From Candidatus Levyibacteriota bacterium (GTDB lineage: Bacteria; Patescibacteriota; Microgenomatia; Levybacterales; UBA12049): a DNA stretch of 64,000 nucleotides. The stretch is taken from the NCBI GenBank assembly GCA_009695045.1, contig SIBS01000002.1:26774-90773 (forward strand), written 5' to 3'. A program made the translations under genes and the position numbers. The notes beneath the pieces were generated by a model. The model made no database searches. It saw only the letters and a program-made list of their open reading frames with translations, and had not been told where the DNA came from. Shown in pieces: positions 1 through 64,000 of the stretch (the first letter of the stretch is position 1; each line of letters opens with the position of its first letter).

Positions 1-789
1 CTAGATTATCATAAAAATTGGGATAATTATTTTATTACAAAAGCAAAACTTATTAAAAATGTAAAAATAGCAATATTAAATCGTGATGAGTTATATTTTG
101 ATAGATTGACTGAGCAAGCAAAAGGTAAAATTATTAGTTTTGGATTTTCATCAAAAGCTGAATATAATCAAAAAAAATTCCCATTAAATTTAAAAATTTT
201 AGGTGATTTTAATTTATTAAATGGTTGGGCAGCAGCAGCAGCGTGTAGTGAGGTCGGAATATCTTCAACTATAATTAAATCTGCTTTAAATAAATTTTCT
301 AGATTAAAAGGGAGAATGGAAGAAATTAAAAATAATAAAGGTCTTATGATTGTGGTAGATTTTGCTGCTACCCCTAATGGCTTAGAGCAGTCATTAAAAA
401 CTTTACGAAAAAAGACAAAGGGGAGACTTATTTCAGTTTTTGGATCAGCTGGGCAAAGAGATATTTCAAAAAGATTTTTAATGGGAAAAATTTCTGCTAA
501 ATTTGCCGATATAACGATAATAACAGCAGAAGATCCACGCGGAGAATTAAATAAGATTAATGAGCAAATTGCTAATGGCGCAAAAGAAGCAGGTGCAGAA
601 ATAAATAAAAACCTTTTTATTATTAATCGTCGTGAAAAAGCAGTAGCTTTTGCGATAAATAATATTTCGAAAATAGGAGATACAATTGGATTCTTTGGTA
701 AAGGTCATGAAGAATCAATGAATTATGATGGTAAAAAAGAAGAACTATATAGCGAATTTAATCAAATTAAAAAATCATTAAAAAAATAA
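1..789 (+). CDS. murE: UDP-N-acetylmuramoyl-L-alanyl-D-glutamate--diamino acid ligase MurE, C-terminal part (5' end lies outside the window)
   Basis: Frame 1 is open from nucleotide 1 with no upstream stop. The Mur-ligase C-terminal domain (VVDFAATPNGLEQSL...GRLISVFGSAGQRDISKRFLMGKISAKFADITIITAEDPRGE) aligns with the MurE pattern (VVDYAHTPDALEKAL...FGCGGDRDKGKR...TDDNPRTE). Confidence 0.7.
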   Translation, partial: LDYHKNWDNYFITKAKLIKNVKIAILNRDELYFDRLTEQAKGKIISFGFSSKAEYNQKKFPLNLKILGDFNLLNGWAAAAACSEVGISSTIIKSALNKFSRLKGRMEEIKNNKGLMIVVDFAATPNGLEQSLKTLRKKTKGRLISVFGSAGQRDISKRFLMGKISAKFADITIITAEDPRGELNKINEQIANGAKEAGAEINKNLFIINRREKAVAFAINNISKIGDTIGFFGKGHEESMNYDGKKEELYSEFNQIKKSLKK

Positions 790-6431: not shown

Positions 6432-6434
6432 ATT

Positions 6435-35043: not shown

Positions 35044-35241
35044 TAAGATAAAAAATATATAAATATTTTTTTTATTTTGTTATTTTTTACATCATCAATA
35101 TTTATTAAAAAAATCTAATAGCTTCTATTGATCTTATAATTAACAATAAAATGTACAAGTACTATCAAAAATAGCGTTATATTTATATGAATACAGAAGA
35201 AATAGCTTTGAGTGAATTAATTAAGTATAATAAGAATAGTT

Positions 35242-36459: not shown

Positions 36460-36631
36460 TATTTTATAAAGCATGTTGATTTCAATATTTATTCAATGTG
36501 CTATTATATATAATTGTCACAGATTAAGAATTTAAAAAATGAAGAAATTTTATACAAAATATTGAATAGTCTCTTTATTATGTGTATGTATATTAAAAAT
36601 GAAAGTAGACAAAAGTAGATAAAAAGAAAAT

Positions 36632-37735: not shown

Positions 37736-39924
37736 TTAGCATCATTATAGTTCATTATCAAGTAAAAAAACAATTATTTAATTGTCTTCAATCTATTTAT
37801 GAAAAAAAGTCTAAATATCATTTTGAAATTATTGTTATTGATAATGATGAAAATCCATATATAGAAAAATATCTCGTAAAGAAATTTCCTAGAGTTAAAT
37901 ATATAAAAAATGAGATTAATAATGGGTATAGTGGGGGAAATAATCTCGGTGCATTATCTTCAAAGGGAGAATTTATTTTTTTCCTCAATCCTGATACTCT
38001 TTTTAAAAATAATGTCTTAGATCAATTGTTAATAAAAATGATGACATATAAATATATTGGCATAGTAGCTCCTTTGCTTTTTAAGGAAAACGGAAAACCA
38101 TTCATACTGCAAGGATCGAAAGAACTTACACCTTTACGAGCAATTTTTTCTTTATCATTTATATATAAATTATTTCCCAATAATAATATTGCAAATGAAT
38201 TTTGGTTAAAAAAATGGAATAAAAAAGAACATAAAGAAGTAGAAGTAGTTCCTGGAACTGCTTTTATGATACGAAAAAATATTTTTAAAAAAATAGGTGG
38301 ATTTGATGAAAATTATTTCCTTTATTTCGAGGAAAATGATATTTGTAAAAGAGTCATAGACTTAGGTAGTAAAATATATATGATATCAGATGCTCATGTT
38401 ATACATTTTTGGGGAGAAAGTACAAAAAAGAGTACAAAAAATATTAAAGCAATTTTTGAAAAAAGTAGATTTTATTATTTTAATAAATTTTATGGACTAC
38501 CTAAGGCATTCTTGGTAGAATTTATGCTTATTTTTTCAAAAGAAATATTATTTTTAATCGCCATTTTATTTTTAGCGGGATGGCTTCGCTTGCATGAGAT
38601 TGAAAGATACTTTCCATTTTTAGGAGATTTTGCATGGTTTTATATTTCAGCTCGAGATTTGTTAATTGATGGTATTTTTCCTTTCGTAGGTATTGCTTCA
38701 AGTCATCCATGGATTCATCAAGGTGCATTTTGGACATATCTTTTGGCTCCAGCACTTGCTATGGGTAATTTTAATCCAATTGCAGGAGGATATCTGTCTG
38801 GTAGTATTGGAATTTTAACAGTTTTAATTTTATATATTTGTACAAAAAATATGTTTGATAGAAGAATAGCAATTTTTACTAGTGCTTTTTTTGCAACATC
38901 ACCTTTGGTTGTTTTTCACTCAAGACTTCCATATCATACAGTACCTATTCCATTATTTGTTATATTATATTTTTATAGTTTGAATAAATGGGTCAAGGGA
39001 AATATTTATTATTTTCCTTTATCGTTGTTTTTTTTAGTAGTATTATATAATTTTGAATTGGCGACTTCAGTTTTTTCTCTACTTATTATCTGTCTTTTGG
39101 GATACGGTATTTATATAAAAGCAATATGGATAAAAAAATTATGGACTAAGAAAATAATATCGTTTTCAATTATTGCAGTATTAATTCCTTTATTGCCAAT
39201 GCTTTTTTATGATTTTTATCATGGATTTTCTCAGACATTACTATTTTTAATATGGATTGGATATAGATTTCTTTTAGTTTTAGGATATCCATCATTACAT
39301 CCTGAAATAAAAACAATTACATTTTCTAGCATGATCTATTTTATTAAAAATAATATACAAAATTACTATTATGTTTCATCATGGATATTTGCATTTTTTT
39401 TAGGAATAATAAGTATTTCTATTTGTGGCATATTATTTATTAAAAATAAAACATTAACTTATGCAATACTTTTTTTAGGAATATTAATTCCTGGTATTAT
39501 AATTTTTTTCAGTAGAGTTCCATCTGAAGCATATTTACCAATGTTTTTTCCACAATTAGCAATATGCATTGGTATAGCATTCTCTTATTTGTATAAATAT
39601 TCACCAAATTATTCATGGATAATAGTAGTTTTTTTTATATTTTTAATTATTTCAAATTCCGTCAATATCATTTCTAAAAATTTCTTGACTAAAAATGAAA
39701 ATAAATTCTATAAAAAAATTGTAGCCGCTCAAGAAATTATCTCACTTGCAGAAGGAAAAGAATACATTATACTAGGAGGAGGAATAAATGGTAAATTTGA
39801 AAGCTTTATTATGCCATATAAATATTTGACCTGGTTTTTGGGTTATTCTGAAAATAAGAAAGCTAAAATAAAGATAGAAGTGTCAGAAGATGAAATGGGT
39901 ATATATTTAAAAAAATATGATTAG
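37717..39924 (+). CDS. Fusion protein: N-terminal GT2 (GT-A) glycosyltransferase plus a C-terminal ~450-aa polytopic membrane domain (GT-C / PMT-ArnT-like)
   Basis: N-terminal VSIIIVHYQ...IIVIDNDENPY...NNGYSGGNNLG...FLNPDT...FDENYFLYFEENDICKR (GT2 DxD and ED motifs). At least 10 hydrophobic helices follow from ~aa 270, with aromatic/acidic-rich loops (FLGDFAWFYISARDL). Confidence 0.65.
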   Translation: MEKKPVVSIIIVHYQVKKQLFNCLQSIYEKKSKYHFEIIVIDNDENPYIEKYLVKKFPRVKYIKNEINNGYSGGNNLGALSSKGEFIFFLNPDTLFKNNVLDQLLIKMMTYKYIGIVAPLLFKENGKPFILQGSKELTPLRAIFSLSFIYKLFPNNNIANEFWLKKWNKKEHKEVEVVPGTAFMIRKNIFKKIGGFDENYFLYFEENDICKRVIDLGSKIYMISDAHVIHFWGESTKKSTKNIKAIFEKSRFYYFNKFYGLPKAFLVEFMLIFSKEILFLIAILFLAGWLRLHEIERYFPFLGDFAWFYISARDLLIDGIFPFVGIASSHPWIHQGAFWTYLLAPALAMGNFNPIAGGYLSGSIGILTVLILYICTKNMFDRRIAIFTSAFFATSPLVVFHSRLPYHTVPIPLFVILYFYSLNKWVKGNIYYFPLSLFFLVVLYNFELATSVFSLLIICLLGYGIYIKAIWIKKLWTKKIISFSIIAVLIPLLPMLFYDFYHGFSQTLLFLIWIGYRFLLVLGYPSLHPEIKTITFSSMIYFIKNNIQNYYYVSSWIFAFFLGIISISICGILFIKNKTLTYAILFLGILIPGIIIFFSRVPSEAYLPMFFPQLAICIGIAFSYLYKYSPNYSWIIVVFFIFLIISNSVNIISKNFLTKNENKFYKKIVAAQEIISLAEGKEYIILGGGINGKFESFIMPYKYLTWFLGYSENKKAKIKIEVSEDEMGIYLKKYD

Positions 39925-40654
39925 TGCAGTTATACTTACTCGAAATGAAGAAAAAAATATCATTGACTGTATGGAAAGTCTTTATTTTTGTAATGAAATA
40001 GTTATTATTGATGATGTTTCCACAGATAGAACAGTTGAAATTGCAAAAAAAGCAGGAGCTATAGTTTATGAGCATGAATTAAATAATAATTTCTCAAAAC
40101 AAAGAAACTTTGGATTGGAAAAAGCTAAAAATGAATGGATACTATTTATAGATGCAGATGAGAGAATATCAGTAGACTTAAAAAATGAAATAAAATATAA
40201 AATTTTAAAAAAAGGAATAAATGGTTACTCTATTAAAAGAAGTGATTTTTTTTATGGTAAAAAATTATTCCATGGTGAAACATCAAGTATATCGTTAGTT
40301 AGATTAGGAAAAAAAAATCATGGCCTGTGGGATGGTGCAGTGCATGAAGAATGGAAAATTAATGGAAAAATATCTATACTTGATACTCCTTTATTGCATT
40401 ATCCTCATCCTACAATAAATGAATTTTTATTGGAGATAAATTTCTATACTGATTTAAATGCAATGGAATTATTTAATAAAGGAATAAGAGCTACATGGTA
40501 TGATGTTATCATATATCCTGTCGCAAAATTTATACATAATTTTATAATAAGAGCTGGTTTCCAAGATGGAGTTGCTGGAATGATTATTGCAATCATGATG
40601 AGTTTTCATTCATTCTTGGTTAGAGCTAAATTACTAAAATATAATGAAAATTAG
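39917..40654 (+). CDS. GT2 glycosyltransferase (soluble, WaaE/KdtX-like)
   Basis: ISAVILTRNEEKNIIDCMESL...IVIIDDVSTDRT...ILFIDADERI GT-A motifs. Confidence 0.7.
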   Translation: MISAVILTRNEEKNIIDCMESLYFCNEIVIIDDVSTDRTVEIAKKAGAIVYEHELNNNFSKQRNFGLEKAKNEWILFIDADERISVDLKNEIKYKILKKGINGYSIKRSDFFYGKKLFHGETSSISLVRLGKKNHGLWDGAVHEEWKINGKISILDTPLLHYPHPTINEFLLEINFYTDLNAMELFNKGIRATWYDVIIYPVAKFIHNFIIRAGFQDGVAGMIIAIMMSFHSFLVRAKLLKYNEN

Positions 40655-40756
40655 AAAAAATAATATTTCTTATATATCACCTTTTTATATATATATATTT
40701 TTTGTAGTTTATATATTATTCGATTATATACAATATCTTCTTTGCAGGGTTAAAAT

Positions 40757-42343
40757 ATGTTTTCCTTTGCATTTTTAATAACATTATATTCATATACAAT
40801 ATTTTTTATTGGAATTATTGGATTATTATATAAAAATGTAATAGTCTCTATCTCATTATTTTATTCATTTATTGCTATCTACTTATTTTTAAAGAAAAAA
40901 TTATATATTTTATCTCTAAAAATAAATTCAAAAATAGAAGTATTATTTATTAGCATTATCAGTTTACAAGCATTGATAAATATAATAGGCGCATTGGGTC
41001 CGGAATTATCATTTGATTCACTTTGGTATCATCTTACCTTGCCTAAATTGTATTTATTAAATAATAGGATTATGTTTATTCCGGGGGGACTTCTTTATTA
41101 CTCTGCTATGCCAAAACTCTCAGAGATGATATATTTAGGAATTCTAGCGATAAAAAGTGAAGTCTTTGTAAAGATATGTCACTATTTTTTTGGAATCTTT
41201 TCAATTATTGCATTATTTAATTTTTCAAAAAAAATATATTCCAGAACTATATCTTTAATAATCGTAACTATTTTTTACTCAAATTTAGTTGTTGCATGGG
41301 AATCTATAACCTCATATATCGACTTAATTAGAACATTTTATGAAATATTAGCTTTTATATCATTTTACAATTGGATTGAATATAAAAATAAACGATGGCT
41401 AGTATATTCTGCTATTTTATTAGGATCAGCAATATCTGTAAAAATTATTTCTTTTTTTTCACTTATTATTTATTTTATATTAATTATTGTAAACTTTATT
41501 AATCATAAATCATCAATTTATAATTTATTTATTAATTTATTTATATATATATTTATAGCTTTAATTATTCCACTCCCATGGTTTATTTTTTCATATATTA
41601 ATACAGGAAATTTAATTTATCCATTTTTTAATTTATTAAATCATGCAATATTGATAGATCTTCCAAGCTCTTTTGTAAATTTTATATATAAGATCATATT
41701 ATTATTTCTTCGTTCCCCAGATCCTATTTCACCATTATATTTTATATTTATTCCTCTCATATTTATTTATAAATCAAAAAATAAAAATATTATATATTTT
41801 TATATTTATGCATTCATAGCTTTACTTGCATGTATTTTAACTTCAAGTACTGGGGGAAGTAGATTTTTAATGCCATATCTACCAATATGGACACTAATTA
41901 TTGGTGATGTTATTCAAAATATTTATAATATTAAATTCAAAAAATTTATTATTATAATAATAATTATTTTTTCTTTTATCTCGGTACCTTATCGTTTTAT
42001 TGCAAATATACGCTTTATCCCTGTTATACTAGGACTAGAGAGTAAAAATAATTTTCTTAAAAATAATTTAAATTTTAATTTTGGAGATTTTTATGATATT
42101 GATGGATATTTGGATAAAAAAATTAATTATAATGATTCGGTTTTAATATATGATATTCATAATCTTTATTATATAGATTTTCCATATATTCATGAAAGTT
42201 GGTTAAAAAAAAATGATAAGTATAATTTTATAATTTCCAGATCAGTTATTTTTCCATTGAATTTAGATAAAAATAAATGGAAATTAATTTATAGAAATTT
42301 TAAATCAAACGTAATCTTATACGGTAAAATATATGATAATTAA
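40757..42343 (+). CDS. Polytopic membrane protein, putative GT-C glycosyltransferase (PMT/ArnT/GT39-83-like)
   Basis: 528 aa, 11 or more TM helices, with the first large loop carrying acidic/aromatic residues (GPELSFDSLWYHLTLPKLY). Assignment is by architecture and context, not by a strong motif. Confidence 0.45.
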   Translation: MFSFAFLITLYSYTIFFIGIIGLLYKNVIVSISLFYSFIAIYLFLKKKLYILSLKINSKIEVLFISIISLQALINIIGALGPELSFDSLWYHLTLPKLYLLNNRIMFIPGGLLYYSAMPKLSEMIYLGILAIKSEVFVKICHYFFGIFSIIALFNFSKKIYSRTISLIIVTIFYSNLVVAWESITSYIDLIRTFYEILAFISFYNWIEYKNKRWLVYSAILLGSAISVKIISFFSLIIYFILIIVNFINHKSSIYNLFINLFIYIFIALIIPLPWFIFSYINTGNLIYPFFNLLNHAILIDLPSSFVNFIYKIILLFLRSPDPISPLYFIFIPLIFIYKSKNKNIIYFYIYAFIALLACILTSSTGGSRFLMPYLPIWTLIIGDVIQNIYNIKFKKFIIIIIIIFSFISVPYRFIANIRFIPVILGLESKNNFLKNNLNFNFGDFYDIDGYLDKKINYNDSVLIYDIHNLYYIDFPYIHESWLKKNDKYNFIISRSVIFPLNLDKNKWKLIYRNFKSNVILYGKIYDN

Positions 42344-43535
42344 AATTTTTATTTTTATACTTTTTTTGATTTATCCATCTGGCGAAGTTCTTCGTTTTAA
42401 TGTCTATCCAAACGTTTCCCTAACAGTTAATGATATTTGTGTTGGACTTTTTGTCTTTGTATTAATTATATTTAATAATCTAAAAAATTTACCATTTAAA
42501 AATAATATATATATATTTATTGGAGTATGTATCTTATCTTTGTTATATAATTTCGAAAGATTTACTTTTACTCAAATATTTATTTCATCTTTATATATTT
42601 TTAGATGGATTATATATTTTAACCTTTTTTTTATATTTTTTAATCTTAAAGACTATAAATTTACAGAAAAACTTATGATTTTTTCTGGATTTATTTTTAC
42701 TATTTTTGGATATATTCAATATTTTTTTTATAATAATTTAAAAAATCTATATTATTTGGGATGGGATGATCATTTATACCGTTTATTTTCAACATTTCTT
42801 GATCCTAATTTTTCTGGAGCCTTTTTAGTACTTTATTTATTTTTTTTAGTTGGAATCTATTATTCACAAAAGTTAATTTCTTACAAGAAATTAACTTTAT
42901 ATTTAATTCTATTTACTATTCCAGCAATATTTTTAACTTATTCTCGTTCTTCTCTTATAATGCTTATTACAGGTGGATTTTTTCTATTATGGTTTTTAAA
43001 TAAAAAAAAACAAATTATTTATTTTATTTTAATTATTATTCTATTTGTTGTAACTTCTTTTAAATATTCTACAATTGAAAATATGAATCTTTTGAGAACA
43101 GCATCTATTAATGCAAGAATATCAAGTGCTAAAGAAGCAATTACTATAATAATAGATAATCCATTAATAGGTATTGGTTTTAATACATATAGATATACTC
43201 AATTAAAATATAAATTTAGAACTGATAACATACCATATATTAGTCATTCAGATGCTGGAACTGATAATAGCTTCCTTTTTATCTTAGCAACAACAGGGAT
43301 AATTGGATTAATATCTTTTAGTTTATTAATTTACCAAATAATAAATAAAACTTACATATCAATGATAAAATATAATAATATTTATGCTCCTATATTTATA
43401 TCATCTTTTATTGGAATACTAGTAAACTCTCAATTTATAAATAGTTTATTTTATCCATTTATAATGGAATGGTTATGGATTCTTTTGGCGTTATCAGTAA
43501 GACAAAAAAATATTAAGGAGAGTAATTTAATTTAA
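42333..43535 (+). CDS. Wzy_C-domain protein (O-antigen ligase/polymerase or PglL-like O-oligosaccharyltransferase family)
   Basis: Polytopic. The conserved Wzy_C loop region (PAIFLTYSRSSLIMLITGGFFLLWF) resembles the (T/S)xSRGAxLG motif; a periplasmic loop lies near ~aa 250-330. Confidence 0.55.
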   Translation: MIIKIFIFILFLIYPSGEVLRFNVYPNVSLTVNDICVGLFVFVLIIFNNLKNLPFKNNIYIFIGVCILSLLYNFERFTFTQIFISSLYIFRWIIYFNLFFIFFNLKDYKFTEKLMIFSGFIFTIFGYIQYFFYNNLKNLYYLGWDDHLYRLFSTFLDPNFSGAFLVLYLFFLVGIYYSQKLISYKKLTLYLILFTIPAIFLTYSRSSLIMLITGGFFLLWFLNKKKQIIYFILIIILFVVTSFKYSTIENMNLLRTASINARISSAKEAITIIIDNPLIGIGFNTYRYTQLKYKFRTDNIPYISHSDAGTDNSFLFILATTGIIGLISFSLLIYQIINKTYISMIKYNNIYAPIFISSFIGILVNSQFINSLFYPFIMEWLWILLALSVRQKNIKESNLI

Positions 43536-53521: not shown

Positions 53522-56500
53522 TTAATTTGAGTATAAGCTAGTTGGAAACACCTTATTTACTATAATTGTTGATTTGTCATTTTTTGCATCAATTTGACCA
53601 TCGATAATCACGGTAGTATCTACAATAAGAAGATTTTTATATTTTTCAAATATTTTTGGGAATACAATGCATTCAACAGACACTCCTTTTTCATTAGTAA
53701 GAAGAATAAAAGCCATTTCGTTATTAGTTTTTTTTGTAAATATTTTTTTTGATGATTCTATTATTCCGCCAATTTTTACTTTTGCGCCTTCTTTTTCTTC
53801 TGAAAGAATTTCTAATTCATGGGTTATGTAAGATCGAATTGCGATAAGATTTTGTTGTTGGGGATGAGCTGTTAAATAGAATCCTAAAAATTCTTTTTCG
53901 AATACAAGTTTTTCATTTTCTGAAAATTCTTCAACTACATTATGTATATTTATAGATTCTTTATTTTCAAATAAATCTTCTTCAAAAAGTGAAAATTGAC
54001 CCTCCAAAGATTGTTTTTTATTTTTCTGTACGCGTTCTGAAATGATGGGAAGATTGATTAATAAGCTTGCTCTGTTTCCAAATTTATCCATGGATCCTAC
54101 TTTAATGAGACTTTCTAAAGTTTTTTTAGTAACTTTTGATAAATCAACTCTAGAACAAAAATCTTCTATGCTTGAAAATTGCTTTTTATTTCTTGCTTCA
54201 AGAATTGTTTCAATTGCTGCTTGTCCAACATTTTTTATTGAAAATAAACCAAATCGTATCTTTGTTTTATCTTCAATACTAAATTCATGATTTGAAAGAT
54301 TTATTTCTGGAGAAAGAATAGTTAATTTTAATCGCTTACATTCAGATATTACTTGTGCAATTTTTTCATTTTTCGTAGGGCCAGTTGATCCACGAGATTC
54401 AGCAGTAAGAAGTGCAGTCATAAATTCTACTGGATAGTGAGACTTGAGATAGCCTGTTCTGAAGGCGATTGTTGCATAGCATGCCGCATGTGCCTTATTA
54501 AATCCATATCCAGCAAATGGAGATATGAGTTCATATATTTCTTCTGCTTTTTTTTGCGTTAATCCTTTTATAACGGCCCCCTTAAGAAATTGTTCACGTT
54601 GTTTTTTCATTTCTCCAGGAATCTTTTTACCCATTGCCTTGCGAAATTTATCTGCATCAAGCCAATTATATCCAGCGATAATCATTGTTGTAAGTAATAC
54701 ATCGTCTTGATAGGTAAGAATTCCATAAGATTGAGAAAGTATGTCTTTTAATCGTGGATCTGGATATGATATGAGGGCTGAATCATGCTTTCTGGCAATA
54801 AAGTCAGGGATATTTTGCATGGGTCCAGGTCGATATAGTGCAACCATTGCCATAAGATCAAAAATAGTTGTTGGTTTAAGTTCTTTTATGTATCTTCTCA
54901 TTCCAGATGATTCAAGTTGAAAAATTCCAGTTGTTTCTGCGCTTGCAAGCATTGCAAATGTTTGTGGATCATCAATTGGAACTTTGGATAAATCAACGTC
55001 AATATCTTGATTTTGTTTTATAAATTTTAAACATTCTTCAATTGTTGTTAGATTTCTTAGACCAAGGATGTCCATTTTTAATAATCCTACACCATCTTCT
55101 CCAACGGTATACATATCATATTGTGTAACAATTTTATCGCCATTACTCTCTCTTTGAAGTGGAGTATAATCAGTAAGAGGTCTATCTGCAATTACGATAC
55201 CAGCTGCATGAACTGAGGCATGACGCGCAACTCCTTCTAATTTCTTCGCGACATCTATTAATCGTTTTGTATCATTCTCTGTTATATATGCTTTTTTTAA
55301 ATCTGGGCTTTCTTGTAATGCTTTATCAATTGTCATTGCATGACCTTGCCAACCAGGAGGAATCATTTTTGAGATTCTATCTGGTCCTGAATATGGCATT
55401 CCAAGTGCACGACCTGCATCGCGTATTGCTCCCTTTGCCTCCATTGTTCCAAAAGTAATAATTTGCGCAACCTTATCTTCGCCATATTTTTTTGTAACAT
55501 AACGAATAACATCATCTCTCCTTGTATCTGCAAAATCTAAATCAATATCAGGGGCTGATGGACGATAAGGATTTAGAAAACGCTCAAATGGCAATTTAAA
55601 ATAAAAAGGATCTACATCTGTAATATTTAACGCATATGATATGACTGATCCAGCAGCTGACCCCCTACCTGGTCCAACTGAGATATTTTGATTTTTTGCC
55701 CAATTTACAAAATCAGCAACAACTAAAAAATATGTTTCATAACCTTTTTTCAAGATTATGGATAATTCGTATTCTACGCGTGTTTTTATTTCTTCTGTAA
55801 TTTCTTCATATCTTTTTGAAAGTCCTTCATATGTTATATCTCTAAGATATTCTCCAGTTTTTTTTCCTTGTGGCACTTCAAATACTGGCATAATCCATTT
55901 ACCAAGTGTGATTTCTAGATTGCACATGTCTGCAATTTTTACTGAGTTTTCTAATGCCTCTGGTAAATCCATGAATAAAACTGTCATCTCCTCTTTAGAT
56001 TTTATGTAAAAATCTGGAGAATTAAGCATCGAGAGCTTTCTATTTGGGGTATCAATTGTTGTTTGCGTTTGAATACAAAGAAGAATTTCCTGTGCTTCTG
56101 CATCATTGCTTCTTGTATAGTGATTGTCATTCGTTGCAACCAATGGTATTCCAAATTTCCTAGATAATTCAATGAGCTTTTCATTAAGAATTTCTTGTGA
56201 TGGAATATTATCATGTTTTTGTATTTCAAGATAAAAATGGTCTTTTCCGAAAATACTTGATATTTTTTTTAATCTTTCAATGGCTGTTTCTTCTTGATTA
56301 TGTAATAATGGATTTGCTATATATCCGTTTAAGCAAGCGCTTAAGCAAATAAGTCCTTCATGATATTTTTCTAATAATTCTATATCAACACGTGGTTTGT
56401 AATAAAATCCTTCTAAGTGAGAAAGAGAAACTAACTTCATTAGATTTTTATAACCCGTATGATTTTCAACTAATAAAATAAGATGATTATAGTTTTTGTC

Positions 56501-56746
56501 TAAGGTAGAATCTTTATCGTGACGTGATCTTTTTGAAATATAAATCTCACATCCAATAATTGGCTTTATTCCTTGCTCAAGGCATTCTTGATAAAATTTT
56601 ATAGTGCCATACATATTTCCATGATCTGTTATGGCGAGAGCTTTCATGTCTAACTCTTTTGCTCTGGAAATCATATTTTTTACTTTTGATAAACCATCAA
56701 GAAGTGAATATTCGCTATGATTATGAAGATGTACAAAGTCAGCCAT
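53522..56746 (-). CDS. dnaE: DNA polymerase III subunit alpha (DnaE-type)
   Basis: N-terminal PHP domain MADFVHLHNHSEYSLLDG; polymerase core motifs (GVGPGRGSAAGS). 1074 aa. Confidence 0.92.
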   Translation of the reverse strand: MADFVHLHNHSEYSLLDGLSKVKNMISRAKELDMKALAITDHGNMYGTIKFYQECLEQGIKPIIGCEIYISKRSRHDKDSTLDKNYNHLILLVENHTGYKNLMKLVSLSHLEGFYYKPRVDIELLEKYHEGLICLSACLNGYIANPLLHNQEETAIERLKKISSIFGKDHFYLEIQKHDNIPSQEILNEKLIELSRKFGIPLVATNDNHYTRSNDAEAQEILLCIQTQTTIDTPNRKLSMLNSPDFYIKSKEEMTVLFMDLPEALENSVKIADMCNLEITLGKWIMPVFEVPQGKKTGEYLRDITYEGLSKRYEEITEEIKTRVEYELSIILKKGYETYFLVVADFVNWAKNQNISVGPGRGSAAGSVISYALNITDVDPFYFKLPFERFLNPYRPSAPDIDLDFADTRRDDVIRYVTKKYGEDKVAQIITFGTMEAKGAIRDAGRALGMPYSGPDRISKMIPPGWQGHAMTIDKALQESPDLKKAYITENDTKRLIDVAKKLEGVARHASVHAAGIVIADRPLTDYTPLQRESNGDKIVTQYDMYTVGEDGVGLLKMDILGLRNLTTIEECLKFIKQNQDIDVDLSKVPIDDPQTFAMLASAETTGIFQLESSGMRRYIKELKPTTIFDLMAMVALYRPGPMQNIPDFIARKHDSALISYPDPRLKDILSQSYGILTYQDDVLLTTMIIAGYNWLDADKFRKAMGKKIPGEMKKQREQFLKGAVIKGLTQKKAEEIYELISPFAGYGFNKAHAACYATIAFRTGYLKSHYPVEFMTALLTAESRGSTGPTKNEKIAQVISECKRLKLTILSPEINLSNHEFSIEDKTKIRFGLFSIKNVGQAAIETILEARNKKQFSSIEDFCSRVDLSKVTKKTLESLIKVGSMDKFGNRASLLINLPIISERVQKNKKQSLEGQFSLFEEDLFENKESINIHNVVEEFSENEKLVFEKEFLGFYLTAHPQQQNLIAIRSYITHELEILSEEKEGAKVKIGGIIESSKKIFTKKTNNEMAFILLTNEKGVSVECIVFPKIFEKYKNLLIVDTTVIIDGQIDAKNDKSTIIVNKVFPTSLYSN

Positions 56747-56775
56747 ATAAATTTTGATGATCCAAATTTATTTGA

Positions 56776-58098
56776 TTATTTTTTATTAAGTTTATTTTTT
56801 AAGATATTTTTAATTATTTCTATATCAATCTTTTTGTTTATAGATTTCATTACTTGTCCAATTAAAAACATTATGACGACTTCTTTTCCATTTCTAAATT
56901 CATCAACGGCTTTTTGATTATTTTTTAATACATCATCAGTTATTTTAGAAAGCTCTATTTCATCAATACCTTCCTTCTTAGAAGAATGAATAATATCCTT
57001 AATGAGATCTTTTACTGAAATGGATAGGATGTTTATTTTTTTATTAATTAATGTATTTGCAATTTGTTTTTGTGATAAGACTCCTTTACTTTGGAATACA
57101 GCTTTTTCAAAATAAGCAGCAAGTGATGCATCACGTATTAAAATCTCTGCATTATAGGAAGAAAGTTGATATTCTTTTTCAAAACGAATTAATTTGTCAT
57201 TAGGCAACTCGGGCATTTGAGATGTAATTTTATCAATTTGTAACTTATCCCATTCTATTGGTGGAATATCAGGTTCTGGAAAATATCGATAATCATTTGC
57301 TTTTTCTTTTATTCTCTGAGATATTGTTATTTGTTTTAACTCTTCCCATCCACGTGTTTCCTGTAGTGGTATTTCGTTTTTATCTAGTAATTCTCTCTGT
57401 CTTTTAATTTCAAATTGTATAGACTTGTCTACGAATCTGAAAGAATTAATATTCTTTATTTCAACTTTATATTTTGGTAATTCAATTTCTCCAATAATTC
57501 GAAGTGATATATTGGGTTCAAGTCGCATATCTCCTTTTTCCATATCTGCATTAGATACATTTAAGTAACGGACAATTTGTTGTAATTTTTGTAGATATTG
57601 ATTTACTTCAAATGAGCTACGAAAATCTGGTTCAGTTACAATTTCTACTAGTGGTACGCCAGATCTATTAAAATCTATGAGACTAACATTTCCCTTATGA
57701 GATAGTTTGCCTGTGTCCTCTTCCATATGTACTCGTGTTATGCCAATACGTTTTATTTTGTTATCTTCAGTAAGCACTTCTATCCATCCATTTTGGCAAA
57801 ATGGTTGATCATATTGGCTAATTTGATATCCTTTTGCAAGGTCAGGGTAAAAATAATTTTTTCTATCAAATTTTGAAGTTAATGGAATTTCACAATTAAG
57901 TGCAATTCCAATTTTAATGCACCATTCGATCGCTGTTTTATTTGGTACAGGTAATGCGCCCGGTAAGCCAAGACATGTCGGACAAGTATGAGTATTTGGT
58001 TTGTTGCCAAAATAATCAGCCGAGCATCCACAAAACATTTTTGATTTTGTTTTTAATTCTACATGCACCTCTAATCCTATTATTGGTTCGTAATTCAT
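56776..58098 (-). CDS. gatB: Asp-tRNA(Asn)/Glu-tRNA(Gln) amidotransferase subunit B
   Basis: MNYEPIIGLEVHVELKTKSKMFCGCS is the canonical GatB N-terminus. Confidence 0.92.
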   Translation of the reverse strand: MNYEPIIGLEVHVELKTKSKMFCGCSADYFGNKPNTHTCPTCLGLPGALPVPNKTAIEWCIKIGIALNCEIPLTSKFDRKNYFYPDLAKGYQISQYDQPFCQNGWIEVLTEDNKIKRIGITRVHMEEDTGKLSHKGNVSLIDFNRSGVPLVEIVTEPDFRSSFEVNQYLQKLQQIVRYLNVSNADMEKGDMRLEPNISLRIIGEIELPKYKVEIKNINSFRFVDKSIQFEIKRQRELLDKNEIPLQETRGWEELKQITISQRIKEKANDYRYFPEPDIPPIEWDKLQIDKITSQMPELPNDKLIRFEKEYQLSSYNAEILIRDASLAAYFEKAVFQSKGVLSQKQIANTLINKKINILSISVKDLIKDIIHSSKKEGIDEIELSKITDDVLKNNQKAVDEFRNGKEVVIMFLIGQVMKSINKKIDIEIIKNILKNKLNKK

Positions 58099-59504
58099 AT
58101 ATTTGGTTTTACTTTATGCCATTCTGTTGATTGTTCAAATAAATAAGCAGCTCTGACTATAAGCGCTTCGGAAAACTGTGGACCAATTAACTGCATTCCT
58201 ATAGGAAGTCCTATCGAAGAAAATCCACATGGAATACTTATTCCAGGTAATCCCGCAATAGATGATGGCTCCACCAGCATATCTGCTATTTCTCCAAACA
58301 TTGGATGATTTTTAGTTGATCCAAGTGGCAATGCTGTTGATGGAGAAGTGGGGGATAGAATAATATCTACTTCCTTAAATGCTTCATTAAAATTCTCAAT
58401 TATTACTGTTCTTACCTTTAATGCTTTATTATAATATTGATCATAGTATCCCGCCGAAAGTGTATATGTTCCTAGAATAATTCTTCTCCTTGCTTCTTCT
58501 TCAAAAAATGAACGATCATTACCATAGCGAATACCATCATATCTGGCAAGGTTGGATGACACTTCTGAGCGTTGTAATATTGTATATACAGCTATGGCAT
58601 ATTTTGGAGCAAATAAAGAAATTTTTTTAATTTTAGCACCGAGTTTTTCAAATTGAAAAATAGCATTTTCAACAATTTTTTTAACTTCATCATCAACTCC
58701 GTCAAAATAATCATCACTTATTCCAATAGTAATTGGATCAATAGATTTTTTTATATCATTAGCAATACTAATAGGAGGGATAGGGGATGATGTTGCATCA
58801 TGGACATCGTGTCCAGAAATAACATCAAAAAGCAAAGCGCTATCTTCAACAGTTTTTGTAATTGGACCAGGGCTGTCAAGTGATGACGCCATTGCTATGA
58901 CGCCATATCGACTTACGCGTCCATAGGTTGGCTTTAATCCTACAACTCCACACCATGATGCAGGTTGACGAATAGATCCTGCTGTTTCAGATCCAATTGC
59001 GCCAATAGCTTCATCTGCTGCAATGCAAGCAGCTGATCCTCCAGAAGATCCACCCGGAAGATAATCAATATTCCATGGATTTTTTGAAGAGCCATAATCA
59101 GATGTTTCCGTAGATGAACCATGAGCCCATGCATCAAGATTAGTTTTTCCTAAAAGTACCATTCCTGATTCTTTTAATCTTTTAACAACGGTCGCATCGT
59201 ATTGAGGTATGAAATTATCAAGTAACTTGCTAGATGCCGTAGTGCGAACTCCAATTGTACAAAAATTATCTTTAATTGCAATTGGAATTCCAAGAAGAGG
59301 AAGATCATCATTTTTAGCCAATCTTATATCTGCTTCTTTTGCATTTATTAAAGCTTCTTCTTTTGTAATTGTTACAAATGCATTTATTTTATTTTCCACA
59401 TTATCTATTTGATTAAAAACTGCCTCAGTTATTTCTAGTGAGGAGAATTTTTTTGCCCTCAATCCCTCTCCTGCCTCTTTAATAGTTAATTGATTAAGTT
59501 TCAT
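58095..59504 (-). CDS. gatA: Glu-tRNA(Gln)/Asp-tRNA(Asn) amidotransferase subunit A (amidase signature)
   Basis: Amidase signature GGSSGGSAA with Ser-cisSer-Lys triad context. 469 aa, between gatC and gatB. Confidence 0.92.
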   Translation of the reverse strand: MKLNQLTIKEAGEGLRAKKFSSLEITEAVFNQIDNVENKINAFVTITKEEALINAKEADIRLAKNDDLPLLGIPIAIKDNFCTIGVRTTASSKLLDNFIPQYDATVVKRLKESGMVLLGKTNLDAWAHGSSTETSDYGSSKNPWNIDYLPGGSSGGSAACIAADEAIGAIGSETAGSIRQPASWCGVVGLKPTYGRVSRYGVIAMASSLDSPGPITKTVEDSALLFDVISGHDVHDATSSPIPPISIANDIKKSIDPITIGISDDYFDGVDDEVKKIVENAIFQFEKLGAKIKKISLFAPKYAIAVYTILQRSEVSSNLARYDGIRYGNDRSFFEEEARRRIILGTYTLSAGYYDQYYNKALKVRTVIIENFNEAFKEVDIILSPTSPSTALPLGSTKNHPMFGEIADMLVEPSSIAGLPGISIPCGFSSIGLPIGMQLIGPQFSEALIVRAAYLFEQSTEWHKVKPNI

Positions 59505-59523
59505 TGTTTATTATTATTTTATT

Positions 59524-59811
59524 TTAATCTGATGATAAAATTGCCTTTACTTTAAACATTCCTTTTTCTGTGCAGCTTGAATTTCTTAATGCTTCTTCTT
59601 GAGAAAATGATTTAGATATTATATCTTCACGAAAAATATTTTTTAGTCCTGTCACCTGATTTGTTGGTTCTTTTCCATCAGTATTGATCTCCTGAAGGCT
59701 TTCAATATAATAAATAGTTTCCAATAATTGCTCTTCTAATTTATTTTTATTTTCATCATCTAGTGGAATATTTGCCAATTTTGCAATACGAGAAATATCA
59801 ATTTTACTCAT
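59524..59811 (-). CDS. gatC: Amidotransferase subunit C
   Basis: 95 aa; DISRIAKLANIPLDDENKNKLEEQL matches GatC (xVxHxAxLARLxLxxEE). Confidence 0.85.
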   Translation of the reverse strand: MSKIDISRIAKLANIPLDDENKNKLEEQLLETIYYIESLQEINTDGKEPTNQVTGLKNIFREDIISKSFSQEEALRNSSCTEKGMFKVKAILSSD

Positions 59812-59887
59812 AAAACCATTATAATAATTTATGAACCTGAAGGCAAGGACATCAAGGTATTTAAAAAATAAATATTATTATCATTTT

Positions 59888-60655
59888 TTAATGATTAAGT
59901 TTATTTAAAATATAATTATGTGCTTCAAATTCAAGAGAATCATCAAGGGGAATTAATTTAATTATTTTATGATACTTAATCTCTAAGGCTTTTTTTATTA
60001 TCAAATCTGCTAGATGTGGATTTTTTGGTAAAATAGGGCCATGAAAATAGGTACCAAAACTATTTTTATATATTGCCCCTTCTGTTTTATCTATGCCATT
60101 ATTACCAAAACCAAAAGTAACTATACCTAATGGAGAAATATTATTACCCAAATATGTTCTGCCCCCATGATTTTCAAAACCAACAAGCGTATTTGATTTT
60201 AAATCATCAATAGTAGGATTAATTATAATATCGCCAACTAAACGTTTTGCATTTATCTCTAGATTTTCAGTATAAATATCAAATATTTTAAGACCTTGAA
60301 TTATATCTCCATCTGCTTTTTTATAATATTTACCTAATAACTGATATGCACCGCAAATATATAGTCCTGGAATATTATTTTCAATCATCTTTGAGATACT
60401 ATTTATTTTATCTTTTGTTAAATCAGTTGATACAATTTCTTGTTGTTTATCTTGTGCGCCACCCATAAATAATATGTTACATTCAATTAAATCTTTTATT
60501 TTAAATCCTATTTCAAGTTTTCTTATTTCAATATCAATGTCTCGCCATTCACATCGTTTGGAAAGCGAAATAATATTACCCCTATCACCATATGTACTCA
60601 TAAGCTCAGGGTAAAGCCATCCTATTATTAATGAGTATTTTATTTTCTTTTTCAT
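59888..60655 (-). CDS. gatD: Lipid II isoglutaminyl synthase glutaminase subunit GatD (CobB/CobQ-like class I glutamine amidotransferase)
   Basis: Catalytic Cys in LYICGAYQLLG and His in GTYFHGPILPKNPHLADLII. About 250 aa, immediately downstream of murT. Confidence 0.75.
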   Translation of the reverse strand: MKKKIKYSLIIGWLYPELMSTYGDRGNIISLSKRCEWRDIDIEIRKLEIGFKIKDLIECNILFMGGAQDKQQEIVSTDLTKDKINSISKMIENNIPGLYICGAYQLLGKYYKKADGDIIQGLKIFDIYTENLEINAKRLVGDIIINPTIDDLKSNTLVGFENHGGRTYLGNNISPLGIVTFGFGNNGIDKTEGAIYKNSFGTYFHGPILPKNPHLADLIIKKALEIKYHKIIKLIPLDDSLEFEAHNYILNKLNH

Positions 60656-60669
60656 AAATTTTATATTAA

Positions 60670-61998
60670 TTATAATATTTTTTTTCCTGTTAATATTTTT
60701 CTAACTTCTAACATCGCAGAATAAGTTGGAAGAATATAAATAATCTCATTATCTGGTATTTTATTTAATAGAATTTTTATAGTATTTTTAATATTTTTAT
60801 TAGTTATAATATTACCAATGTTTGGTTGTAGATATTTTAAGCGAAGTGACATATCATAACATCTGTCTCCTGAAGTATATATATTCATAGAATCATTTAA
60901 ATAAATTTCAAAATCAACATCCCAAATCCATGAAATATCTCTACCATCTGGGATTTGATTATTAAGCACAAAAAGGATATGCTTTCCACCTAAATCTCTT
61001 ATAGTAGAAAGCGATTGATTCATACTAGTTGGATTTTTAGATAAAAATAATTGTATTTTTTTCCCTTCAATTATAATTACCTCTTGCCTACCAAAGGCTG
61101 GTTTAAATTTTTTAAGTGTAGAATTTATTTTTTTAGATTCAATTCCAAGTATTTTTGCTGATAGGACAGCCGCATTGGTATTATATTGGTTATAAATTCC
61201 ATTAAGTGGATATATTAATGAGGTTGATGTGTCAAGATCAGGTCTTTTGAGATTACATTTGCTACAGTTCCAATTTCCGATATGGGAATAATAAATAGTT
61301 TTATAGTTTAATTTTGTTTCGCAGCGTGGACAATAGGTTGAATCAGATGCATGTTGAAGTAAATCAATAGAAAGTTTTGGATTATCTAATCCAAAATAAA
61401 ATATTTTTTTCTCTGATTTATCATTAATAGCATGATTTTTAATAAAGATAGACATTCCAAGCCATGCAATTCTTGGATCATCCGCATTTAAAATAATTTT
61501 TGTATTTGATGATATATTCTCTAGGGTTGTGCTCCATTTTTTTGCTATACTATTTACTTCTCCATATCGATCTAATTGATCTCGAAACAGATTTAGAAAT
61601 ATCAATTGATGTGGAATTATAAACTGAAGAATAATTGATAAAGAATTTTCATCTATTTCAAATATTGCAAATTTTGCTGAGATTTCTCCATTGATATTTG
61701 AATTAAGCAAAAGAGTGGAAGCAATACCATTTAGAAGATTAGCTCCAGACATATTTTGTAAAACTTTTGATCCATTATCGCTTATTATATTTGCAATAAG
61801 AGATGACGTAGTAGTTTTACCATTAGTACCCGCTATGATAATTACTTTTAATTGTCTATTACTATCAATCAATTCTTTTATAAAATTTTTATTTATTTTT
61901 AGAGCAATATGGCCTGGCCAAGTTGAGCCATTGCCTAGATTTAAATTTTTGCTTATGATTGAAATTAATTTACAAATGAGAATAATACATGAATTCAT
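60670..61998 (-). CDS. murT: Lipid II isoglutaminyl synthase ligase subunit MurT (Mur-ligase family with Cys4 zinc ribbon and DUF1727)
   Basis: Mur-ligase P-loop IIAGTNGKTTTSS; MurT-specific zinc ribbon CPRCETKLNYKTIYYSHIGNWNCSKC; N-terminus GNGSTWPGHIALKI. Confidence 0.8.
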   Translation of the reverse strand: MNSCIILICKLISIISKNLNLGNGSTWPGHIALKINKNFIKELIDSNRQLKVIIIAGTNGKTTTSSLIANIISDNGSKVLQNMSGANLLNGIASTLLLNSNINGEISAKFAIFEIDENSLSIILQFIIPHQLIFLNLFRDQLDRYGEVNSIAKKWSTTLENISSNTKIILNADDPRIAWLGMSIFIKNHAINDKSEKKIFYFGLDNPKLSIDLLQHASDSTYCPRCETKLNYKTIYYSHIGNWNCSKCNLKRPDLDTSTSLIYPLNGIYNQYNTNAAVLSAKILGIESKKINSTLKKFKPAFGRQEVIIIEGKKIQLFLSKNPTSMNQSLSTIRDLGGKHILFVLNNQIPDGRDISWIWDVDFEIYLNDSMNIYTSGDRCYDMSLRLKYLQPNIGNIITNKNIKNTIKILLNKIPDNEIIYILPTYSAMLEVRKILTGKKIL

Positions 61999-62023
61999 TT
62001 TTAATTAGAATTTATTAATTAAA

Positions 62024-62941
62024 CTACATTGATCGAAGTAATTTAATTCTTTCTTCAATTGGTGGATGAGTATTAAAAAGTCCTGAAACCCAAGTACTTA
62101 CCCCTTTCCCCTTAAATGGATTAGCAATAAATAAATGAGCTGTTGCATTATTTGCAACTTCAAGTGGTTCTCTATCTTTTCCAATTTTTTCCAAAGCAGA
62201 GGCTAGGCCTTCGGGATATCGTGTAAGTAAGGCAGCGGATGCATCTGCAAGTAATTCTCTTTTTCGTGAAACAGCAAGTTGTATTAGTGTTGCAATAATT
62301 GGTGAAATAATTGCTAATGCAATTCCTATCACTATAAAAATAGTACTGGAATTTTTATTATCATCACTATTTCTGTACCATAAGCTACGCATAAAAAAAT
62401 CTGTGAGTAAAGTAATTAATCCTACTAATACTACTACGATAGACATTACTCGAATATCATAATTTTTTATATGAGATAATTCATGAGCAATTACCCCTTC
62501 AAGCTCAGATTTATTGAGTTTTTCTAATAAACCTGATGTTATGCACATAACTGCATGTTGAGGATCTCTTCCTGTTGCGAATGCATTTGGTGCCGTATCA
62601 TTGATAATATATAATTTTGGCATAAGAGTCCCACTGCCGATGCAAAGATTCTCTACAATACGATAAAGTTGAGGATATTGAGATTTAGAAATTGTTTTAG
62701 CATGTGACATTGAGAGAATTAACTTATCGGAATAGAAATAGCTAGAAAAACTCATAATCCCAGAAAAAATAAAAGCTACTCCTACCATAGATAATCCGTA
62801 GCCAGATGCTTTTCCAAATATATAGGATAGGATGGTTATAAAAAATATAAAAAGTATAATTATTAACCATGTTTTATTTTTATTAACACTTATATTTGAA
62901 TAAATAGACATAATTATATTATTTGCTTTAAACAGATACAC
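62024..62941 (-). CDS. htpX: M48-family membrane zinc metalloprotease HtpX
   Basis: HELSH zinc motif (VIAHELSHIKNYD), four TM segments, and a downstream ELLADA Glu ligand. Confidence 0.88.
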   Translation of the reverse strand: MYLFKANNIIMSIYSNISVNKNKTWLIIILFIFFITILSYIFGKASGYGLSMVGVAFIFSGIMSFSSYFYSDKLILSMSHAKTISKSQYPQLYRIVENLCIGSGTLMPKLYIINDTAPNAFATGRDPQHAVMCITSGLLEKLNKSELEGVIAHELSHIKNYDIRVMSIVVVLVGLITLLTDFFMRSLWYRNSDDNKNSSTIFIVIGIALAIISPIIATLIQLAVSRKRELLADASAALLTRYPEGLASALEKIGKDREPLEVANNATAHLFIANPFKGKGVSTWVSGLFNTHPPIEERIKLLRSM

Positions 62942-62991
62942 TATAAAAAGATTTTTAAATCTTATCTATAGTGTATCACCGAAAAAATTAC

Positions 62992-63543
62992 TTAAAATTT
63001 TATCTTAATTGGTTCTCTTTCTGTTTCATTTGTAGCGAAAAATTCTCTTTCTTTAAAACCAAAAAATTGGCTAAGAAAATTAGTTGGAAATGAAACAAGA
63101 GCGGTATTGTAATCTCTAACATTTGAATTACAGAATTGTCTCGCATAAGCAATCTTATTTTCCGTATCAGAAAGTTCATCTTGTAGATGCAGAAAATTTT
63201 CATTTGCTTTAAGATTTGGATAATTCTCAGAAACTGCAAAAAGAGTTTTTAGTGCATTACTAACGGTATCATTTGATGCAGCTTTTTCTTGAACTGTATC
63301 TGCTTTCATAAGTGAGGTGCGAGCCTTAGTGAGATTTTCAAGAAGTTCCTTTTCGTGCTTTGCATATCCTTTTACTGTTTCTATAAGATTTGGAATAAGA
63401 TCAACCCGTCTTTTTAGTTGCACATCAATTCCACTAAGTGCTTCATTAATTCTAACCCCTCCCGTTACGAGTGAATTATACATAGACCAAATATAAAATG
63501 AAATAATAACTCCTATAATTAGAATAATAATTTGTATTGGCAT
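62992..63543 (-). CDS. lemA: LemA-family protein
   Basis: N-terminal TM plus YNSLVTGGVRINEALSGIDVQLKRRVDLIPNLIETVKGYAKHE matches the LemA signature (YNxLVxxxxxVxxAWSxIDVQLKRRxDLIPNLVxTVKGYAxHE). Confidence 0.88.
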   Translation of the reverse strand: MPIQIIILIIGVIISFYIWSMYNSLVTGGVRINEALSGIDVQLKRRVDLIPNLIETVKGYAKHEKELLENLTKARTSLMKADTVQEKAASNDTVSNALKTLFAVSENYPNLKANENFLHLQDELSDTENKIAYARQFCNSNVRDYNTALVSFPTNFLSQFFGFKEREFFATNETEREPIKIKF

Positions 63544-63559
63544 ATTCTTACCTCCTTCC

Positions 63560-64000
63560 TTATTTATTTTTTATCCATTTAATAAAATTATCATAATTTA
63601 ATGTGTTTAGAATATCTTTACTTTCTGCCCATCCTCTTCTAGCAACTGAGACTCCATATCTCATCTGATTCATTTGTGATACATCATGACTATCTGTGTT
63701 TATTATCATTTTAACGCCATGCGATATTGCCTCTTTTATAATTATATCAGGTAAGTCAAGTCTTTTTATTGATCCGTTTATTTCAAGAGCTTTATTATTA
63801 TCTTTAGAAAATAAAAAAAGTTTTTCAAAATTTACATCATATCCATTTCTTTCATTAAGTAATCTTCCTGTTGGGTGAGAAAATATTTTTGCTTTTGGGT
63901 GAGAAAAACCATTTAATATTCTTTTTGTCATTATATCTTTTTGCATGCCAAAGGAGCTATGTATTGATATAAGGACTGCATCAACTAATTCTAAACTTTT
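63560..64000 (-). CDS. PHP-domain phosphoesterase (histidinol-phosphatase-like), N-terminus beyond the window
   Basis: The reading frame stays open to the window edge (…KSLELVDAVLISIHSSFGMQKD…). PHP motifs ISIHSSF and NTDSHDV are present. Confidence 0.6.
   Translation of the reverse strand, partial: KSLELVDAVLISIHSSFGMQKDIMTKRILNGFSHPKAKIFSHPTGRLLNERNGYDVNFEKLFLFSKDNNKALEINGSIKRLDLPDIIIKEAISHGVKMIINTDSHDVSQMNQMRYGVSVARRGWAESKDILNTLNYDNFIKWIKNK

Follow-up and report, generated by a model that had tools for sequence, protein, structure and literature searches.

Predicted lipid II and tRNA amidation systems, MurT/GatD and GatCAB, lie side by side in a conserved, probably inherited gene block of a Candidatus Levybacteria genome

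The DNA analysed here, referred to below as the window, is a stretch of 64,000 nucleotides (nt) of contig SIBS01000002.1 (assembly GCA_009695045.1, positions 26,774 to 90,773 of the forward strand). Its host is a Candidatus Levybacteria metagenome-assembled genome (MAG) from the Microgenomates branch of Patescibacteria, within the Candidate Phyla Radiation (CPR). The region from 56776 to 61998 is occupied end to end by five open reading frames (ORFs) on the minus strand, in the order murT-gatD-gatC-gatA-gatB, which are predicted to encode the lipid II isoglutaminyl synthase MurT/GatD and the tRNA-dependent amidotransferase GatCAB:

60670-61998, minus strand: murT, 442 amino acids (aa), ATP-dependent Mur-ligase-like subunit of lipid II isoglutaminyl synthase
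59888-60655, minus strand: gatD, 255 aa, class I glutaminase subunit of lipid II isoglutaminyl synthase
59524-59811, minus strand: gatC, 95 aa, subunit C of the tRNA-dependent amidotransferase
58095-59504, minus strand: gatA, 469 aa, amidase-signature glutaminase subunit
56776-58098, minus strand: gatB, 440 aa, ATP-dependent kinase/transamidase subunit

The spacers are 14 nt between murT and gatD, 76 nt between gatD and gatC and 19 nt between gatC and gatA, and gatA and gatB overlap by 4 nt. An earlier reading of the letters alone (the original prediction) had described murT-gatD as directly upstream of and co-directional with gatCAB, and this is the layout found, five ORFs in one run on one strand. 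The strand is shared by the upstream neighbours of murT, which are htpX (at 25 nt), lemA and a PolX gene, and downstream of gatB follow dnaE, at a distance of 29 nt, and the ATP synthase operon. The GC content is about 30% throughout the window and 0.27-0.32 across the locus, without a compositional break. The exact MurT protein is also encoded in the NCBI MAG GCA_026396595.1 (contig of 615 kb) and in several assemblies from groundwater, and its closest named relatives are from Candidatus Levybacteria/Levyibacteriota.

The product of murT matches the Pfam profile MurT_C/DUF1727 (PF08353) with 102.3 bits against a cut-off of 25, all profile positions (1-110 of 110) being covered, and Mur_ligase_M with 52.5 bits (cut-off 24). 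The best NCBIfam models are two for MurT, with 261 and 216 bits, the 261-bit match spanning positions 21-441 of 447; the next models are pMurC (89 bits) and MurE (about 60 bits). The top four matches in the Protein Data Bank (PDB) are all MurT (S. pneumoniae 6fqb_A, E 2e-62; S. aureus 6gs2_B, E 2e-53; and two further entries), with 214 bits as compared to 54 bits for the next protein. In a quick neighbour-joining (NJ) tree the protein is placed inside the MurT group, far from the MurC and MurF of the window, to which it is 19-21% identical. The original prediction had named the lack of DUF1727 and a grouping with MurE/CapB as the findings that would speak against MurT; the domain is present, the MurT score of 261 bits compares with at most 89 bits for any other Mur-type ligase model, and the tree position is within MurT.

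The sequence motifs agree with these matches. The P-loop GTNGKTT starts at residue 57, and the CPRC...CSKC motif of zinc-ribbon type, which had been noticed in the original prediction, is present with its two halves at residues 223 and 245. The resulting Cys tetrad (223/226/245/248) aligns with Cys 205, 208, 227 and 230 of S. pneumoniae MurT (positions from PMC6085368); its fourth Cys is replaced in 4 of the 20 other aligned MurT sequences, these four being from actinobacterial, Bacillota, Dormibacteria and Acidiferrales loci. Asp354, within DISWIWD, aligns with D355 of S. pneumoniae MurT, a residue that completes the catalytic triad of GatD and of which the D355A allele is not tolerated in vivo (PMC6085368). 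All 21 aligned MurT sequences, that of the window included, share the P-loop core and Asp354.

The neighbouring gatD product gives 112 bits with Pfam GATase_3, and the NCBIfam GatD models are by far its best matches (206 and 200 bits, as compared to 39 bits for the cobQ models). Among the PDB structures only those of MurT-partner GatD proteins were matched, with S. aureus GatD (5n9m/6gs2_A) at E 7e-51. The Cys and His residues proposed earlier for GatD are both in place, Cys101 aligning with the catalytic Cys94 of S. aureus GatD and His205 with His189. The mechanism of MurT/GatD is known from structures (PMC6085368, PMC6113224). By analogy, the GatD of the window would hydrolyse glutamine by means of a Cys101-His205 triad completed by Asp354 of MurT, and the ammonia released would be passed to MurT and used to form D-iso-glutamine in lipid II.

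The three remaining ORFs each score above the NCBIfam equivalog cut-off of the corresponding GatCAB subunit, namely TIGR00135 for GatC (63.4 bits, cut-off 47.1), TIGR00132 for GatA (511.6 bits, cut-off 481.1) and TIGR00133 for GatB (476.7 bits, cut-off 314.8). They also match Pfam GatC (55 bits), Amidase (453 bits) and both GatB_N (379 bits) and GatB_Yqey (47 bits), respectively, and GatA carries the motif GGSSGGS at residue 151. As in other bacterial GatCAB systems, the order is gatC-gatA-gatB with tight or overlapping junctions. The complex would amidate Glu-tRNA(Gln) and/or Asp-tRNA(Asn). The GatB of the window differs from that of other bacteria in being rather short, with 440 aa as compared to 475-501 positions in the NCBIfam GatB models and about 437-471 aa in relatives, and in its YqeY-type domain, the profile of which is matched only from position 52, leaving the first third unmatched. 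A further difference, local to the window, is the predicted leaderless start of gatC described below.

Taken together, Pfam, NCBIfam, PDB and motif evidence upholds the identities proposed for MurT, GatD and GatCAB, and the window is thus predicted to hold two genuine and separate amidation machines, each dependent on glutamine and ATP. We infer the enzyme activities from homology, at about 35% identity and with all catalytic residues kept. The chemistry of the two systems is analogous, as in each of them ammonia released by a glutaminase subunit is handed to an ATP-dependent partner, which activates a carboxylate. There is, however, no homology between them: GatA is an amidase-signature enzyme whereas GatD is a class I glutamine amidotransferase, and GatB, although the functional counterpart of MurT, is not related to the Mur ligases. 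The gene name gatD is also used in archaea, where it likewise denotes the glutaminase partner of an amidotransferase; archaeal GatD is the asparaginase-type subunit of the tRNA-dependent GatDE, whereas the GatD of the window is a CobQ-type GATase_3 protein. The shared name is a realistic source of confusion, although none of the public names checked showed a GatD/GatDE mislabelling. The original prediction had expected automated annotation to mix up the two neighbouring systems; no such mix-up with GatCAB was found in the public records, in which the genes are simply under-annotated. MurT appears there as 'UDP-N-acetylmuramyl peptide synthase' or 'MurT ligase domain-containing protein', and GatD as 'glutamine amidotransferase' or 'hypothetical protein'.

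The pair was compared to the characterized MurT/GatD of S. pneumoniae (6fqb) and S. aureus (6gs2, 5n9m; the murT locus tags SACOL1951 and SAOUHSC_02107 were confirmed from the papers). Common to all are the adjacent position of murT and then gatD with a short spacer, which is 4 bp in S. aureus (PMC3267633) and 14 nt in the window, and the domain composition, with a Mur ligase central domain, a Cys-rich insertion, DUF1727 and a CobQ-type class I glutaminase. The P-loop, the Cys tetrad, the MurT Asp (D355 corresponding to D354) and the GatD residues C94/H189 (corresponding to C101/H205) are shared as well. The window differs in that its MurT is only about 35% identical to that of S. pneumoniae, and in that the pair is found in a CPR host, a lineage that is not part of the published distribution (PMC6085368). 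Moreover, its pair is probably not an operon of two genes by itself but part of a longer run behind lemA-htpX, and it is followed by gatCAB, an arrangement unseen in 67 loci of other phyla.

These loci belong to a set obtained by scanning one genome per species, with alignment of MurT, using the patterns FRDQLDRY and [IV][AV]GTNGKTT, by which most Firmicutes were missed. Eighty loci of 21 kb were kept, and nine proteins of the window were located in them by tblastn. Besides those of the five genes listed above and of the PolX gene, they are the products of three conserved neighbours:

62992-63543, minus strand: lemA, conserved neighbour upstream of murT (Pfam LemA, 200 bits)
62024-62911, or to 62941 with a GTG start, minus strand: htpX, conserved upstream neighbour (Pfam Peptidase_M48, 107 bits)
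53522-56746, minus strand: dnaE, 1074-aa ORF that closes the conserved block downstream (the identical gene of locus L001 is on record with PHP, DNA_pol3_alpha and related domains)

Of the 12 informative Microgenomates loci, from Levybacteria, Gottesmanbacteria and others, 11 have the order PolX-LemA-HtpX-MurT-GatD-GatC-GatA-GatB-DnaE, at 45-53% MurT identity. By contrast, gatCAB was not found within 10 kb of MurT in any of the 67 loci of Cyanobacteria, Chloroflexi, Actinobacteria, Bacillota and Dormibacteria. The linkage of murT-gatD and gatCAB is thus real, old and lineage-specific, and it is one junction of a larger housekeeping block. Its recurrence reflects the shared ancestry of the nine-gene block and counts as roughly one evolutionary event. 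In S. aureus, gatCAB presumably lies about ten genes away from murT-gatD.

Five of the MAGs with the Levybacteria-type nine-gene block (L006, L011, L012, L015 and L031) are titled 'uncultured Gammaproteobacteria bacterium'. Their MurT and DnaE identities are 44-52% and 51-70%, respectively, and these taxonomic labels look wrong.

The junctions within the block are not equally tight. The gap between murT and gatD is at most 97 nt in all 12 Microgenomates loci, and HtpX and MurT lie about 3-100 nt apart in 12 of 13 relatives. On the other hand, 6 of 11 relatives have 550 nt or more between gatD and gatC, and four of these six carry a clear inserted ORF there. The inserts are as follows:

L009: NUDIX
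L015: NUDIX and a thiamine diphosphate (ThDP) enzyme
L013: HAD hydrolase
L008: unknown ORF of 270 aa
L031: opposite-strand ORF without a family match
L006: two short ORFs without a family match

In another Microgenomates MAG (L016, 10001-15242), murT-gatD is followed directly by dnaE and gatCAB is absent from the 21-kb locus, having been either moved or lost. In L009, two histidine-phosphatase genes separate gatC from gatA.

Of the matches given by a consensus promoter scan of 56500-63700, one falls in the only sizeable spacer, that between gatD and gatC:

59818-59846, minus strand: sigma-70-like promoter match TTGCCT-17-TATAAT (10/12 matches) in the 76-nt gatD-gatC spacer

This element is a prediction and not a mapped start site. 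Its -10 box ends 6 nt before the ATG of gatC, which is the geometry expected of a leaderless transcript. A perfect TATAAT at most 45 nt upstream of the start codon is present before gatC in 9 of 12 loci, as compared to 1/13 for murT, 1/13 for gatD, 0/12 for gatA, 0/12 for gatB, 4/12 for lemA, 4/13 for dnaE and 1/13 for htpX, where the offsets look like an artefact. In seven loci, the end of the box is 6-8 nt away from the start codon of gatC, and the three loci without a TATAAT carry a Shine-Dalgarno sequence instead. Of the 12 loci, 8 have the looser pattern TTGNNN-16..18-TANNAT ahead of gatC, as compared to 4.9% of random windows of equal size. In L006, a terminator-like hairpin (7-bp, GC-rich, with a T-run, at 6540-6557) immediately precedes the TATAAT box of gatC. 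The 0.8-kb insert in which it lies (5826-6562) also has, at 6165-6192, a promoter of perfect consensus, TTGACA-16-TATAAT, and with its promoter, two short ORFs and hairpin this insert resembles a small self-contained cassette.

The same signal recurs elsewhere in the window. A TATAAT ending 4-10 nt before the start is found for 7 of 57 genes, about 10 times the roughly 0.7 expected. These genes, with starts at 12855, 16565, 23731, 24790, 30655, 35242 and 59811, all follow larger intergenic gaps, and they comprise mraY, ftsA, rplU, gatC and three others. A Shine-Dalgarno-like motif is present in only 9 of the 57. The TATAAT near the start therefore looks like the usual operon-head signal of this genome, and its frequency suggests that leaderless transcripts at operon heads may be common in it. 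On this basis the locus would consist of two units, lemA-htpX-murT-gatD and a separate gatCAB. The latter would start at its own promoter, with the -10 box ending 6 nt before the gatC ATG, and give a leaderless mRNA. As the HtpX-MurT gaps are short and murT is essentially without a TATAAT of its own, lemA and htpX are likely transcription partners of murT-gatD.

Several explanations of the locus were weighed. That it holds two amidation systems whose adjacency is inherited gene order rather than functional coupling, with gatCAB as a separate predicted unit, is in our view probably the right one. The identities on which this rests could be doubted, since MurT and GatD both score below their NCBIfam equivalog cut-offs (261 bits against 800 for NF045635, and 206 bits against 400) and since public records name the former 'UDP-N-acetylmuramyl peptide synthase'. 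The ORF would then encode a different member of the Mur family (for instance a MurE paralogue, CapB, or a ligase resembling cyanophycin synthetase or the archaeal MurT-like proteins), next to a CobQ-type enzyme with another role. Both proteins are, however, aligned over their full length, and the cut-off of 800 bits is set for sequences close to the seed clades. The end-to-end match to MurT_C/DUF1727, the distance in score to pMurC and MurE and to the first non-MurT structure, the conserved Cys tetrad and catalytic Asp, the restriction of GatD to MurT-partner structures with low cobQ scores, and the presence in the window of its own MurE, MurC and MurF make such an identity scarcely credible. 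It was rejected, as the Pfam, NCBIfam and PDB matches and the tree all point to MurT. A recent acquisition of murT-gatD by horizontal transfer, which would have placed it beside gatCAB by chance, is likewise highly improbable. The grouping of Microgenomates MurT with that of cyanobacteria (42-46% identity) in the quick NJ tree could hint at an old transfer, but Levybacteria, Gottesmanbacteria and further Microgenomates have the arrangement in common, with MurT identities of about 45-53%, and it is therefore old. The GC content of the locus agrees with that of the rest of the window and the flanks are without mobile-element genes. A recent insertion was thus rejected on the grounds of conserved synteny and uniform GC.

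The alternative that bears most on the regulation of these genes is a single murT-gatD-gatCAB operon kept by selection, in which wall and tRNA amidation would be co-regulated, for instance by glutamine supply. It is in keeping with the five co-directional genes, spaced by 14, 76, 19 and -4 nt, with an order that has persisted in 11 of 12 Microgenomates loci despite a MurT identity of only 45-53%, and with the established enzymology, both systems amidating a carboxylate by means of glutamine and ATP. We nevertheless regard it as unlikely. The unrelated neighbours PolX, LemA, HtpX and DnaE are equally conserved, so that the kept order is not informative about the two amidation systems in particular. 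The gatD-gatC junction is among those most often broken by insertions, and L016 lacks gatCAB at this place. TATAAT is strongly enriched before gatC, preceded in L006 by the hairpin, and the linkage is absent from the 67 MurT loci of other phyla. Two transcription units, murT-gatD and gatCAB, thus appear likely from these sequence features, and a conserved neighbourhood without regulatory meaning is the most likely state. The arrangement had been called notable for co-regulation in the original prediction, and the comparison of loci lends this part no support, in view of the insertions, the conserved TATAAT and the hairpin. Several observations nevertheless weigh against inherited order with separate units, besides the low equivalog scores. 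No terminator-like hairpin was found by a scan of 56500-63700, so that read-through from murT-gatD into gatCAB may occur. A generic promoter scan of the same region gave 39 matches as compared to 46 ± 7 in shuffled sequence, and a single match thus means little alone. The 12 loci are related, and the TATAAT counts are therefore not independent events. In L010-L012 the gatD-gatC gap is just 16-30 nt, which places the -35 element inside gatD and thereby allows both an internal promoter and co-transcription. A further possibility is a selected regulatory module, lemA-htpX-murT-gatD and gatCAB, in which read-through from the envelope genes would add to a constitutive leaderless gatC promoter. We consider it decidedly doubtful. 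If true, it would tie wall and tRNA amidation to one glutamine supply in metabolite-scavenging organisms. As a more general caution, tight and conserved adjacency is by itself no sign of an operon or of shared regulation in compact genomes with co-directional genes.

The affinity to Cyanobacteria concerns the Microgenomates MurT sequences as a group, which have cyanobacterial MurT as their nearest relative outside the CPR, with 42-46% identity as compared to 35-39% for Chloroflexi, Actinobacteria, Bacillota and S. pneumoniae, and which group with the former in the quick NJ tree, drawn without support values. An ancient transfer of wall amidation between the lineages might account for this affinity, a reading that we hold to be just as doubtful as that of a selected module. 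In many cyanobacterial loci (L017-L041, L058 and L067), gatD is 0.1-2 kb from murT or is not within 10 kb.

MurT/GatD had been described in the original prediction as known mainly from Staphylococcus, Streptococcus and Mycobacterium. This reflects where the experiments were done, and the operon is more widely distributed: Morlot et al. (2018) reported murT-gatD across Actinobacteria, Chloroflexi, many Firmicutes and some Cyanobacteria (PMC6085368), and it is widespread in Terrabacteria, with Actinobacteria, Chloroflexi, Lactobacillales, Clostridiales, Staphylococcaceae and some Cyanobacteria on record (PMC6085368, PMC3267633, PMC11915815). CPR bacteria are not listed in these three distribution surveys. 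Similarly, a literature search for MurT/GatD together with Patescibacteria, CPR or Microgenomates returned nothing relevant, 'MurT' occurring with CPR terms only in papers on other subjects, one to three times in each. The family itself is abundant in Levybacteria sequence data, with at least 7997 matches at E ≤ 1e-20, and the exact proteins of the window are already in NCBI under generic names. The present data would thus extend wall amidation by MurT/GatD to Levybacteria and related Microgenomates, a lineage of the CPR previously undiscussed for this system.

The window also contains the other cell-wall genes that had been cited along with MurT/GatD as FemX, Ldt and VanW, and all three families were found by Pfam:

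11755-12774, plus strand: FemAB-family gene (Pfam FemAB, 103 bits), in the division and cell wall (dcw) cluster
20660-21337, minus strand: VanW-like gene (Pfam VanW, 35.8 bits)
21467-22174, plus strand: YkuD L,D-transpeptidase gene (Pfam YkuD, 82.7 bits)

The dcw-type cluster comprises the MurE C-terminus, MurC, MurB, MurA, MurF, MraY, FtsW, MurG, FtsA and FtsZ, and the window encodes in addition an acyltransferase-3 gene and a polysaccharide deacetylase. The L,D-transpeptidases of E. faecium and M. tuberculosis and the penicillin-binding proteins of the pneumococcus require amidated stems (PMC10484409). Together with the FemAB, YkuD and VanW genes, this requirement makes an amidated, branched and partly 3-3 cross-linked wall a reasonable prediction. 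Combined with MurT/GatD, these genes provide a concrete and testable prediction of wall chemistry for uncultured ultra-small bacteria. The MurE C-terminus (1-789, cut by the window start) reads EDPR, whereas MurE enzymes adding diaminopimelate (DAP) have DNPR. EDPR is neither the DAP-type DNPR nor one of the Lys-type variants, and it is not decisive for the residue at stem position 3.

Some further features of the envelope genes were noted. Between murF and mraY, inside the dcw cluster, a DegT/DnrJ/EryC1-type sugar aminotransferase gene (10518-11777) lies next to the FemAB gene, an unusual place for a sugar aminotransferase. The functions of GlmU appear to be split between two overlapping ORFs, a nucleotidyltransferase (4563-5312) and a hexapeptide acetyltransferase (5309-5944), which are followed by a small ORF without a Pfam match and then by glmS. 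The region from 33065 to 43535 is a polysaccharide cluster with glycosyltransferase, flippase and Wzy-type genes, in which an ORF of 528 aa (40757-42343) has no Pfam match, and the GC content falls to 0.21-0.25 across 38-44 kb.

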